From positions 100,285-164,284 of the IMG/VR virus record IMGVR_UViG_3300043399_000371: a stretch of DNA of 64,000 nt. One strand, written 5' to 3'. The translations under genes were made by a program, and so were the position numbers. The notes under the pieces were generated by a model, which saw nothing but the letters and a program-made list of their open reading frames with translations, was not told the DNA's origin and made no database searches. Origin of the DNA: a virus (Duplodnaviria; Heunggongvirae; Uroviricota; Caudoviricetes). Positions 36,696 to 38,270 of the stretch are shown piece after piece. How positions within the stretch are numbered: the first letter of the stretch is position 1; each line of letters opens with the position of its first letter.

Positions 36696-36942
36696 TGATT
36701 TTCTTTCTAATTAGTTTTGATAATATTTATGAGAAAGGGTTTTTAAGCGACCTATACCAGAAAAAAATTTTGAAGAGGGTAAATAGCAAAAAAATTTACC
36801 GAAAAAAATTTTGAAAACGACTTTTGGGGAATTAAGAAAAGTATTTAAGTATATCGAGGCAACTATCTTTACATCAGCCCAGTCTTCTTTCCGGAGTCCC
36901 ATTATAGCTGTCTCTGAGCGATTTGTCAAGCTGTATCGGTCA

Positions 36943-37176
36943 ACTGTATCGGAAAAACAACACAAAAGCTATCGGGGGCAAAACACTAACACAAACACAG
37001 ATCCATGTCAATAGCTATAGAAACAACACTAACCTATTGACAATCCTCTGAGACTATGTTAGATGCAGTATAGGGGAAACGTCAGCCAATCCACTAACAT
37101 ATCTATAGAACAATGTCAATAGGTTGCGGATAGGATACGGATAATCCACGGTGACTGTATCGGAAAAACAACACAA
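36943..37176. repeat. 23-nt perfect direct repeat ACTGTATCGGAAAAACAACACAA (36943..36965 and 37154..37176) plus extra CTGTATCGG copy at 36931
   Basis: Exact match, copies 211 nt apart. Confidence 0.8.
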
Positions 37177-37204
37177 GGACAACCCTATTGACAATCCTCT
37201 GAGA
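37032..37204. repeat. 21-nt perfect direct repeat CCTATTGACAATCCTCTGAGA (37032..37052 and 37184..37204); contains TTGACA
   Basis: Exact match, copies 152 nt apart. A third related CTATTGACAAACC occurs at ~37237. Confidence 0.8.
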
Positions 37205-37299
37205 ATATGGTAGGGATGCAGATAAACCACACATACTATTGACAAACCTATAGATATGTGCTAAGGATATGTCAAGCTAATGTGTGAATGTACAAATGA

Positions 37300-37358
37300 G
37301 AATGATTCGTATTCTCGCTTCTGGTTCTGGGAATGATTCTCGCTTCTGGTTCTGGGAT
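37300..37358. repeat. tandem repeat (G)AATGATTC(GTATT)CTCGCTTCTGGTTCTGGGA x2
   Basis: Two adjacent near-identical units, iteron-like. Confidence 0.75.
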
Positions 37359-37599
37359 AGTTCTCGGTTTGTCAAGTGAAATATTATTGTGTGGTATCGA
37401 AGCAACATGAGAGAATATTGTGCGAAATGTTGAAATAATGCTTGACAATATTGTGTTTACTTGATCTACAACAATATTCTCTTACCGTTCAGCCTATTGA
37501 ACAGTCTCCAGTAGTGCGATATAAATACAAACAATTCTCATTTAGATTCCACCTATAGTGTTTCGGATAGTCTCGGACCTTACCTATAGTATCCATCCC

Positions 37600-38270
37600 C
37601 AGCAAAGCATCTAGAAGCCCCTACAATCGATTTTCTGCCTCTACCCTAGTCTACCCCTTTCCCTATGTTCCTGATGCGATCCTAGAGCGTTTTGATGCGT
37701 TCTAGACTATCCTGATGCGGTTCTAGTCTTTCCCTATGAATATTCTCTTATTAATAGTCTCGGTTCTTTGGATATTAAAAAACCCGGATTATCTCACCGG
37801 GTTTATATATTACTGACTGATTATATTCTCTTATTCCTTACTCAACAATTCCATATAATGTTCCCAGCGTGATTTTGCGAGTTGAAAAATCGGCTCCATT
37901 TCAATTTCCATGAGTTGCAATTCACCCGACATAATCACATATTTTTTATTGTCGGTGATCTTACCCGAATCCAATTGTTTCCGAAGCTTGACTACTTTCC
38001 GATTCAGTTTATCAGCAGCATCCTCGGCTTGTTTCCAAAGTGCATGGGCATTTTCTTTGCGTTCATTGTTGGTGAAATACATGGTGCCGATTCCTATTAA
38101 GCGTTGACAAGTCCCGATTGTAGCACCATCAGGGAAACGTATGCAAGCGAAAAGTGATGACCCAGCAAAGCCCCTAGAATCGATTCCTTGTGATCACTTG
38201 GTCCTACCCTACCAGTCATCCCCTAGAATCGATCCTGCGCTTTCCTGATCGATTCTAGGGGCATCAGCGA
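37600..38270. repeat. dispersed short repeats CCCCTAGAATCGAT (x3, one inverted) and CTGATGCG(a/g)T(c/t)CTAGA(g/c)
   Basis: CCCCTAGAATCGAT at ~38174, ~38222 and inverted at ~38248. GATGCGATCCTAGAGCG / GATGCGTTCTAGACTA / GATGCGGTTCTAGTC at 37670..37730. Confidence 0.6.
37831..38082 (-). CDS. hypothetical coiled-coil protein embedded in the repeat region
   Basis: 83-aa ORF. Possible -10 TATAAT at ~37846. Confidence 0.35.
   Translation of the reverse strand: MYFTNNERKENAHALWKQAEDAADKLNRKVVKLRKQLDSGKITDNKKYVIMSGELQLMEIEMEPIFQLAKSRWEHYMELLSKE

Follow-up and report, generated by a model that had tools for sequence, protein, structure and literature searches.

A gene-free, TTGACA-rich module in an uncultured T4-like phage: a candidate polymerase-docking and early-promoter hub

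The DNA analyzed here is a 64,000-nt stretch of IMG/VR record IMGVR_UViG_3300043399_000371 (positions 100,285 to 164,284; hereafter the window), which represents part of the genome of a large, uncultured, T4-like phage. Between a small orphan gene and a cluster of internal-protein genes lies a gene-free module of 1135 nt (36696..37830, read here on the minus strand, which is the direction of the neighboring genes), and in it are concentrated TTGACA boxes of an unusual type, a perfect sigma-70 promoter and a series of sequence blocks whose order recurs in two distant relatives. We favor, with moderate confidence, the reading that this module is a polymerase-docking and early-promoter hub that would act as DNA, through the host sigma-70 RNA polymerase. 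The original prediction had described the region as a candidate replication origin and, at the same time, as an early-promoter hub. The second half of that proposal is well supported by the clustering of the boxes, the perfect promoter and the recurrence in the relatives, while the first half received no specific support, as nothing specific to replication was found.

Relatives were collected by protein searches with the ADP-ribosyltransferase and the denV product encoded downstream of the module. Two lineages were found to have an equivalent gene-free block at the same place: contig L004 (JGI, Joint Genome Institute, 3300046000; block at 5918-7437) and the contigs L007/L008 (ENA ERZ27235353 and Logan SRR5995672; block at 5223-6700 of L008).

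Promoter-like boxes and repeats of the module

Boxes were chosen by an exact TTGACA alone, on either strand, and the positions that follow were scored with a 17-nt spacer. The module of the window has nine such boxes (36924-37447), out of a total of 25 in the three orthologous modules; the density there is 6.0 per kb, compared with 1.4 per kb elsewhere. The 25 boxes share a profile: TA is found at -12/-11 in 21 of them, TG at -15/-14 in 19 and G at -10 in 17 (that is, the -10 element starts with TAG in 17/25), while only four have T at -7, the perfect promoter at 36929 being among these exceptions. In the rest of the window, 20 of 26 TA-bearing boxes have T at -7, and TG accompanies it in only 3 of those 20 (Fisher p = 1e-4). 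The combined pattern TTGACA-N14-TGNTA occurs 9 times in the window, where 0.33 would be expected, and five of these occurrences are within 277 nt (36987-37263); in the relatives, the matches located inside the module are 7 of 7 in L008, 7 of 8 in L007 and 4 of 5 in L004.

In sigma-70 promoters, the T at -7 stabilizes the open complex. According to a review of T4 prereplicative transcription, polymerase in the closed complex touches double-stranded DNA at the -35 element, TGn and -12/-11, and -35/TGn promoters are a recognized class (PMC2988021). The module boxes retain these double-stranded contacts (a TTGACA -35 element, TG at -15/-14 with a 17-nt spacer, T at -12 and A at -11) and lack the T at -7 of the ordinary -35/-10 class (TAnnnT), and for this reason we assign them to the -35/TGn class as putative sites.

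Besides the perfect promoter, the module of the window contains eight TTGACA boxes distributed over both strands, six of which keep -12T/-11A, and five of these also keep TG at -15/-14. Boxes in the direction of the genes (minus strand) are located at 36983..37011 (TGtTAGTGT, -35/TGn class), 37091..37119 (TGtTAGTGG) and 37247..37275 (with a -10 of TATAGG), and antisense boxes (plus strand) at 37037..37065 (TGtTAGATG, within a 21-nt repeat), 37188..37216 (TGgTAGGGA, in the second copy of that repeat) and 37239..37267 (TGcTAAGGA). The boxes at 37037 and 37091 are convergent, the latter belonging to an inverted repeat, and the box at 37239..37267 overlaps the convergent box at 37275..37247. The spacer ATCCTCTGAGA of the box at 37037..37065 is shared with an antisense box of L004 (AATCCTCAGAGA). 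In L008 the alternation is regular, with convergent pairs 69-71 nt apart and 32-56 nt between pairs; judging from the usual footprint of the polymerase, two polymerases could not bind one such pair simultaneously.

The perfect promoter, TTGACA-17 nt-TATAAT (36901..36929, minus strand), matches the sigma-70 consensus at 12 of 12 positions and reads toward the gene that starts at 36695. Its counterparts in L008 and L007 are also perfect (TATAAT), and in L004 the -10 is TATGGA; with L004, L008 has in common the -35 element and the initial half of the spacer, and with the window the -10 and start, from which we consider the promoter orthologous in all three genomes. The predicted initial transcribed sequence, GGGACTCCGGAAAGAAGACTGGG (36878..36900, minus strand), is G-rich and conserved: the -10 element plus the next 23 bases differ from those of L008 (GGGACTCCGGGAAGAAGACTGGG) at a single position, and a start rich in G-runs is predicted at the same place in all three genomes, including L004. 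This near-identity between the window and L008 is found although the neighboring proteins are only 44-73% identical.

An AT-rich leader follows (36732..36877, minus strand), with A/T-tract repeats that include two copies of GAAAAAAATTTTGAA, at 36760 and 36801 on the plus strand, and with AAATTTTTTTC words common to the window, L004 and L008. The leader, of about 200 nt, ranks at 36650-36800 among the least-stable 2-6% of the window in duplex stability, without being its minimum, and that of L008 is among the ten least stable 100-bp intervals of its contig. Between the leader and the first gene is a T4-type late-promoter-like box, CATAAATA (36724..36731, minus strand), 29 nt before the ATG at 36695, and in L008 the orthologous ATG is likewise preceded by a conserved TCATAAATATTAT. 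Since TATAAATA boxes stand directly before several genes of the window, as T4 late promoters do, we accepted this sequence as the late-promoter motif of the phage, and CATAAATA probably serves as late promoter of the genes for internal proteins. Another TATAAATA box (37520..37527, plus strand) points away from all neighboring genes; its counterpart in L004, at the corresponding site, is TATAAATG, and in L008 it is missing.

The extent of the gene-free DNA required a correction. The proposal that there is almost no coding in 36700-38270 stands in that the longest stretch of the 64 kb free of open reading frames (ORFs) falls here at every ORF cut-off used, and it fails for an 83-aa ORF at 37831..38082 (minus strand), so that the non-coding DNA consists of the 1135-nt module (36696-37830) and a separate spacer of 191 nt after the 391-aa gene (38083..38273, minus strand). 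The six frames of the module have 17-29 stops each, and no gene was called in it in the source contig, the 168-kb JGI metagenome contig Ga0485233_000013, which is identical in sequence. The 83-aa ORF, called as a gene there, has its own expression signals (a TGcTACAAT promoter at 38117-38125 and an AGGA ribosome-binding site) and gave no match in Pfam, PHROG or phage tblastn searches. Its intrinsic terminator (37783..37803, minus strand), which bounds the module, consists of ACCCGG-N9-CCGGGT followed by T6, forms a hairpin in the predicted fold and could terminate transcription in both directions.

All the repeats previously listed were found again at their positions. The 23-nt perfect direct repeat ACTGTATCGGAAAAACAACACAA, A-rich/T-rich and just upstream of -35 boxes, is located at 36943..36965 and 37154..37176 (plus strand), with a third copy as CTGTATCGG at 36931; the 21-nt repeat CCTATTGACAATCCTCTGAGA is at 37033 and 37184, with a diverged copy at 37236; ATTCTCGCTTCTGGTTCTGGGA occurs twice in tandem in 37311-37357 with a period of 25; CCCCTAGAATCGAT is at 38171 and 38220 and inverted at 38248, with the variant CCCCTACAATCGAT at 37618; and three GATGCG..TCTAG units start at 37673, 37694 and 37714. 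Repeated 10-mers cover 360 bases here, the highest value of any 1.2-kb interval of the window (median 80; shuffle mean 39, maximum 150), and the repeat content is therefore above chance. The copies of CCCCTAGAATCGAT, on the other hand, do not constitute a separate motif, because the phage uses CCCCTAGAATC as the -10 region in its standard early promoters, as in TTGACA-N12-ttCCCCTAGAATCtagtc at 40045 and 46218. One CCCCTAGAATCGAT copy and its inverted partner compose a perfect 14-15-bp hairpin (38220-38262; the third copy is at 38170-38184), which directly follows the stop of the 391-aa gene and has no U-tract.

Conservation of the module in distant relatives

The modules of the three lineages are 1.1-1.5 kb long, and the proteins encoded around them have diverged considerably from those of the window (identity of 39% for the 391-aa protein, 44-47% for the ADP-ribosyltransferase and 66-73% for denV). 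In the direction of the genes, the common order of blocks is the terminator hairpin of the upstream gene, a CTAG/TAGGG block, CACTACTG (accompanied in two genomes by GTTCAGCCTATTGAACAGTCTC, identical in both but in opposite orientation relative to the genes), a (CCAGAA)n tract, TTGACA boxes on both strands (5-11 per genome), the consensus promoter, the AT-rich leader with its AAATTTTTTTC words and TCATAAATATTAT before the ATG; genes for internal proteins then follow in all three genomes. Terminator-like hairpins bound the module in L004 and L008 as well. The BLAST blocks are collinear between the modules, and the window and L004 modules have 17 10-mers in common on the same strand and 22 on opposite strands, compared with a null of 3.4 (maximum 12). 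The gene upstream of the module is different in each relative. The original prediction had taken an absence of the repeats from every relative as grounds for abandoning it; their architecture recurs in two distant ones, and this conservation makes the observation stronger than was then supposed.

Three further conserved blocks lie in the module. The (CCAGAA)n hexamer tract (37311..37357, minus strand, in the gene direction) is inside the 25-nt tandem duplication of the window, and has 8.8 copies in L004 and 5.2 + 5.5 copies in L008; CCAGAACC is enriched 57-fold in the three modules. The 12-nt word CCAGAACCAGAA occurs twice in the window, 25 nt apart and not evenly spaced, while the tract of the relatives is made of contiguous hexamers. 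Similar words at 56.4 kb were discarded as unrelated, being inside a small coding sequence. The second block is the 22-nt element GTTCAGCCTATTGAACAGTCTC (37490..37511, plus strand), with the 16-bp palindrome GTTCA-N6-TGAAC, which is 100% identical in L008 (about 6345-6324, on the gene-direction strand), flipped relative to the genes, and absent from L004. Its half-site GTTCAG resembles GTTCTG, the antisense hexamer of the nearby tract. The third is the CTAG/TAGGG-rich block (37598..37735), which includes the GATGCG..TCTAG units (37669-37730) and CCCCTACAATCGAT (37618); its anchors CTCTAGAACGCAT, CATAGGG and GCTTTGCTG are common to the window, L008 and L004, and TAGGGT is enriched 29-fold and GAGAAT/ATTCTC about 10-fold in the three modules.

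Searches beyond these lineages gave no further modules. The region had no blastn match among cultured phages; neither the 21-nt repeat nor the conserved leader nor the 22-nt element with the palindrome was found as an exact motif in IMG/VR, and GTDB genomes likewise lacked the leader; and the ADP-ribosyltransferase led to no relatives in IMG/VR. Of the 38 metagenome and 5 IMG/VR loci with relatives of the 391-aa protein, none was syntenic except contig L004. Closer relatives reached through denV were on contigs too short or without the region, and more distant ones had neither the module nor a box cluster in the stretches fetched. The gene-free gaps of one more distant relative (L009) are tRNA arrays and not the same module.

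A promoter hub and its alternatives

According to the reading that we favor, the perfect promoter would be a very strong one and fire early into the internal-protein genes, producing a transcript with a G-rich start and an AT-rich leader, and the separate late promoter CATAAATA would take over these genes later. The -35/TGn-class boxes would serve as docking sites for polymerase, with weak or abortive firing both ways. The array is located at the border between the hyperplastic early region (38-53 kb) and the internal-protein cluster, and it may capture polymerase right after infection and separate the early region from the next transcription unit, that is, the internal proteins and then denV.

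Several considerations weigh against a hub. The evidence is the sequence of an uncultured phage, and the conservation statistics are thin because only three lineages carry the module. Imperfect boxes were left uncounted, as the boxes were picked by their -35 hexamer. As they lack the T at -7, the boxes could be recognized not by polymerase at all but by another protein that prefers a similar motif. A hub gives no role to the hexamer tract, the palindrome or the TAGGG-rich block, all of them conserved. In addition, the guanine plus cytosine (GC) content of the module, 0.377, equals the window mean, whereas the promoter islands of E. coli are AT-rich and bound by H-NS.

We regard a replication origin as unlikely. 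It would be primed by RNA from the early promoter: the G-rich start would give a persistent hybrid in the AT-rich leader that primes the leading strand, the divergent boxes would add negative supercoiling, and the hexamer tract or the palindrome would bind an accessory protein. Such an origin is compatible with a promoter hub, because T4 origins are themselves promoters. A perfect early promoter, the conserved G-cluster start and an AT-rich leader of low stability (this last in the window and in L008) agree with it, and the region is the largest non-coding stretch of the window. T4 oriE reportedly requires an early-mode promoter and has direct repeats of unknown role (PMC3016281), and repeat-rich non-coding regions are origins elsewhere, as in the PLE non-coding region (PMC7145576). 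The T4 oriF/oriG type that had been proposed can be set aside, since no MotA-box middle promoter is present: of the five occurrences of TGCTTNA-N11-13-TANNNT in the window, none falls within 36.6-38.3 kb. The near-DnaA box, TAATCCACG at 37142, proved to be at chance level (301 matches in the window with up to 2 mismatches, against 274 +/- 17 expected). As for the iteron-like repeat, the tandem copies of ATTCTCGCTTCTGGTTCTGGGA are real, and there are no phased iterons (at least three units of about 17-22 bp); the long repeats occur in pairs, 151 and 211 nt apart, and the repeat spacings as a whole (151, 211 and 25 nt) are irregular. No initiator gene adjoins the module, whose flanks are the GNAT-like and ADP-ribosyltransferase-like genes, the 83-aa orphan and a phrog_2319 member, and no tblastn match to RepEA/RepEB better than E = 1 was obtained in the window. 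The GC skew, which had been suggested as a check, turns at about 5-6 kb of the 64-kb window and not at 37 kb, the least stable DNA of the window is elsewhere, and the anatomy of T4 oriE, inside gene 5, is different. T4 origins, however, share no sequence motif, and two of them are away from skew shifts (PMC3016281), so that sequence by itself cannot identify an origin.

The remaining explanations are less probable. Non-functional debris, in the sense that repeated recombination, duplications and gene losses in the hyperplastic region would have left behind old early-promoter cassettes, seems improbable to us. PeSL-like cassettes, known to be substrates of recombination (PMC2839356, PMC4122927), crowd the neighboring 38-53 kb, CCCCTAGAATC -10 fragments are scattered without a -35 element, copy numbers and spacings vary among the relatives, one 22-nt element is inverted, and many short tandem repeats of 2-3 copies resemble slippage products. 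Nevertheless, three lineages with an identity of 39-73% between their flanking proteins keep the position, block order and word set, each of them has retained 1.1-1.5 kb in spite of the tight packing of T4-like genomes, and the neutral decay of ordinary promoters would not preserve TG and TA while losing only the T at -7. We give a similarly low likelihood to a binding array for a phage or host DNA-binding protein (for example, one that recognizes GTTCWG in the tract and the palindrome), which could serve packaging, genome organization or defense evasion and for which the TTGACA boxes would be incidental. The conservation of the (CCAGAA)n tract in all three lineages, the identity of GTTCA-N6-TGAAC in two relatives and the enrichment of GAGAAT/ATTCTC and TAGGGT agree with it; against it, no candidate binding protein is encoded beside the module, the upstream neighbor changes from one relative to another, and it is the polymerase-type box, not these words, that gives the signal of greatest strength and position specificity.

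Least probable of all, and by our estimate very improbable, are one or more non-coding RNA genes, such as a late plus-strand RNA of about 270 nt that would extend from the TATAAATA box (37520) as far as the hairpin ending at 37803. A plus-strand late-promoter box, a hairpin that possibly terminates in both directions and the lack of an ORF fit such a gene, whereas no Rfam family was found in the region at gathering or permissive thresholds, the relatives align poorly with many indels, the plus-strand TATAAATA is not conserved in L008, and folding is no better than that of shuffles (z of 0.55 for the leader, 0.05 for the plus-strand candidate and -1.29 for the 38083-38280 spacer). The sole conspicuous structures in the folds are the terminator and the 14-bp hairpin that follows the 391-aa gene, the latter in the minimum free energy structure. 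A hidden or decayed gene was discarded, as a six-frame comparison with L004 shares no peptide, and the modules contain no tRNA genes.

Known systems, genomic setting and meaning

The phage is T4-like judging from its TATAAATA late promoters, from the replication genes encoded by contigs of its relatives (gp44/45/62, that is, clamp and clamp loader, RegA, gp32 and gp59) and from the order of internal-protein genes and then denV, which agrees with the T4 order ipIII-ipII-denV. In T4, the gap between gene e and ipIII is only 88 nt, in contrast to the 1135-nt module ahead of the internal-protein genes of the window. The left end of T7 is comparable in having a gene-free leader of several hundred bases before its first genes, with short repeat arrays and strong tandem promoters for the host polymerase (A1, A2 and A3); these early promoters have good -10 elements, point in one direction, belong to a fixed genome end and help DNA entry, whereas T4-like genomes are circularly permuted.

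The closest known systems are the T4-type -35/TGn early promoters, the PeSL cassettes and the E. coli promoter islands, and the module fails the defining features of each: it is set apart by the lack of the T at -7, of a stem-loop and of a downstream gene, and by an average GC content. With T4-type early promoters and the -35/TGn class (PMC2988021) it shares TTGACA, the 17-nt spacer, TG at -15/-14, T at -12, A at -11 and an A/T-rich upstream flank, in a T4-like phage that uses such promoters for its early genes; it differs from them in that its boxes mostly lack the T at -7, face both ways at 6 per kb, mostly start the -10 with TAG and have no gene behind them. With PeSLs (PMC2839356, PMC4122927) it shares repeated sigma-70 consensus promoters in a T4-like hyperplastic region and the presence of -10 fragments. 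PeSLs flank orphan genes, whereas no G+C-rich stem-loop was found in the spacers of the module boxes (e.g. ATCCTCTGAGACTATGT), no Shine-Dalgarno sequence or ATG is directly behind them, as no ORF follows, and their -10 is another one. The E. coli islands (PMC3661553, PMC7054387) resemble it in the very dense promoter-like sites on both strands; they reportedly bind polymerase, yield little productive RNA and adjoin compositionally foreign DNA. They are AT-rich, H-NS-bound and chromosomal, while the module has an average GC content, an ordered conservation and a perfect promoter, in a lytic phage. T4 oriE (PMC3016281; NC_000866), also of a T4-like phage, is alike in its reported dependence on an early-mode promoter and perhaps in its short direct repeats, which are conserved in related phages. 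It is inside and antisense to gene 5, with the RepEA/RepEB ORFs and evenly spaced 12-mers, in contrast to a gene-free module beside internal-protein genes, with irregular repeats and no RepE relatives. T4 oriF/oriG may be similar in having a promoter followed by easily melted DNA, and differ in depending on MotA for their middle promoters.

The genes of the window are on the minus strand from 5.7 kb to its end. Upstream of the module, 38.3-53 kb is occupied by numerous small genes. Each has its own TTGACA-17-TAnnnT promoter, with the ribosome-binding site and ATG right behind it, and several of these promoters have G+C-rich palindromic spacers (those at 39814, 40792 and 47171 have such a stem). 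We interpret 38-53 kb as a hyperplastic early-gene region with PeSL-type promoters, and it is the promoters at 39.8-53 kb, with their palindromic G+C-rich spacers and the Shine-Dalgarno sequence and ATG directly behind, that fit the published description of PeSLs (PMC2839356, PMC4122927). The GC content is 45.5% at 38.3-48 kb and 53% in the 391-aa gene, compared with about 36% elsewhere; this GC-rich island (38274-48000) is occupied by the small genes with PeSL-like early promoters. A similar compositional step (47% versus 35%) is present upstream of the gene-free module in L007/L008, and the module thus marks a compositional border in both lineages. The 391-aa protein (38274-39449, minus strand) belongs to phrog_2319, has no Pfam match and contains a conserved Cys/His motif, N[PA][ES][HN]CDHC; large phages of Vibrio, Aeromonas and Caulobacter encode relatives of it, and in one record a relative is labeled RecT-like.

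TTGACA(N)ATCCTCWGAGA was seen in several unrelated viral contigs (IMG/VR L050-L073; for example L052:2928, L053:405, L058:6370 and L067:3929), with TATAAT or CATAAT at the correct distance, which indicates promoters that share a CTCWGAG-palindrome spacer. Its 24 IMG/VR matches are about the number expected by chance, and only one of them is in a relative.

The first genes downstream of the module encode a GNAT-like protein (124 aa) and an ADP-ribosyltransferase-like protein (348 aa), whose N-termini are MKSFISFILES and MKSFKQYTKEK; genes at the same position in the relatives start with MKSFKQFRLQES, MKSFKEYIIEN and MKTFKDFLNEE. T4 internal proteins have the N-terminus MKTYQEFIAE and are cleaved after Glu. 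The N-termini of the genes downstream of the module look like such capsid-targeting sequences (CTS), and these are presumably what the original prediction meant by a "CTS gene". Given this resemblance to the T4 capsid-targeting sequences, both proteins may be packaged and injected, as T4 Alt is. N-termini of the MKSFK(Q/E)(F/Y)..E type are found at 35278-36695 of the window, L004:9187-10909, and L007:8273-8596 and 3517-4551. In the window, an HNH homing-endonuclease gene (34629-35141, plus strand) separates denV from the gene of the ADP-ribosyltransferase, and another is found, with its own terminator, at the downstream edge of the module in L004 (7438-8133, minus strand); both are on the strand opposite to the surrounding genes, at differing sites of the same neighborhood.

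The window also encodes an RNA ligase, an ATP-dependent DNA ligase and a denV-like pyrimidine-dimer glycosylase, as well as 25 tRNA genes and one transfer-messenger RNA (tmRNA). The tmRNA and 24 of the tRNA genes are in 9829-30304, all on the minus strand; the tmRNA is permuted, of betaproteobacterial type, with the tag ANDERFALAA, and consensus sigma-70 promoters precede several tRNA genes (e.g. at 26445 and 16797). By coordinate arithmetic, contig Ga0485233_000013 begins at about window position 18426, and the window therefore spans the contig ends (1-18425 lying on the far side), which would be the case in an assembly that is circular or circularly permuted. Contig L002 (Logan SRR35181291_2019854), obtained from another sample, is 100% identical to 30340-36913 over 6574 nt, which places the same phage in at least two samples. 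L002 ends exactly within the perfect promoter, at 36913, perhaps because the repeats interrupted the assembly or because the array is variable.

T4-like phages pack their genes tightly, and the retention of a gene-free block of 1.1-1.5 kb is unusual for them. Beyond a promoter hub, we entertain only tentatively, as a possibility of rather low likelihood, that the module is a phage DNA "sponge" or loading platform that holds the sigma-70 holoenzyme in closed or abortive complexes, diverting it from the host or feeding the consensus promoter, or else a new type of gene-free, transcription-primed origin of a T4-like clade. If the module were an origin, it would provide a sequence-recognizable origin type in a group whose known origins share no motif. 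If its boxes hold polymerase without firing, the module would be a DNA-level device for takeover or insulation, undescribed in this group of phages, and the boxes would constitute a natural test set for -35/TGn contacts without a proper -10 element.

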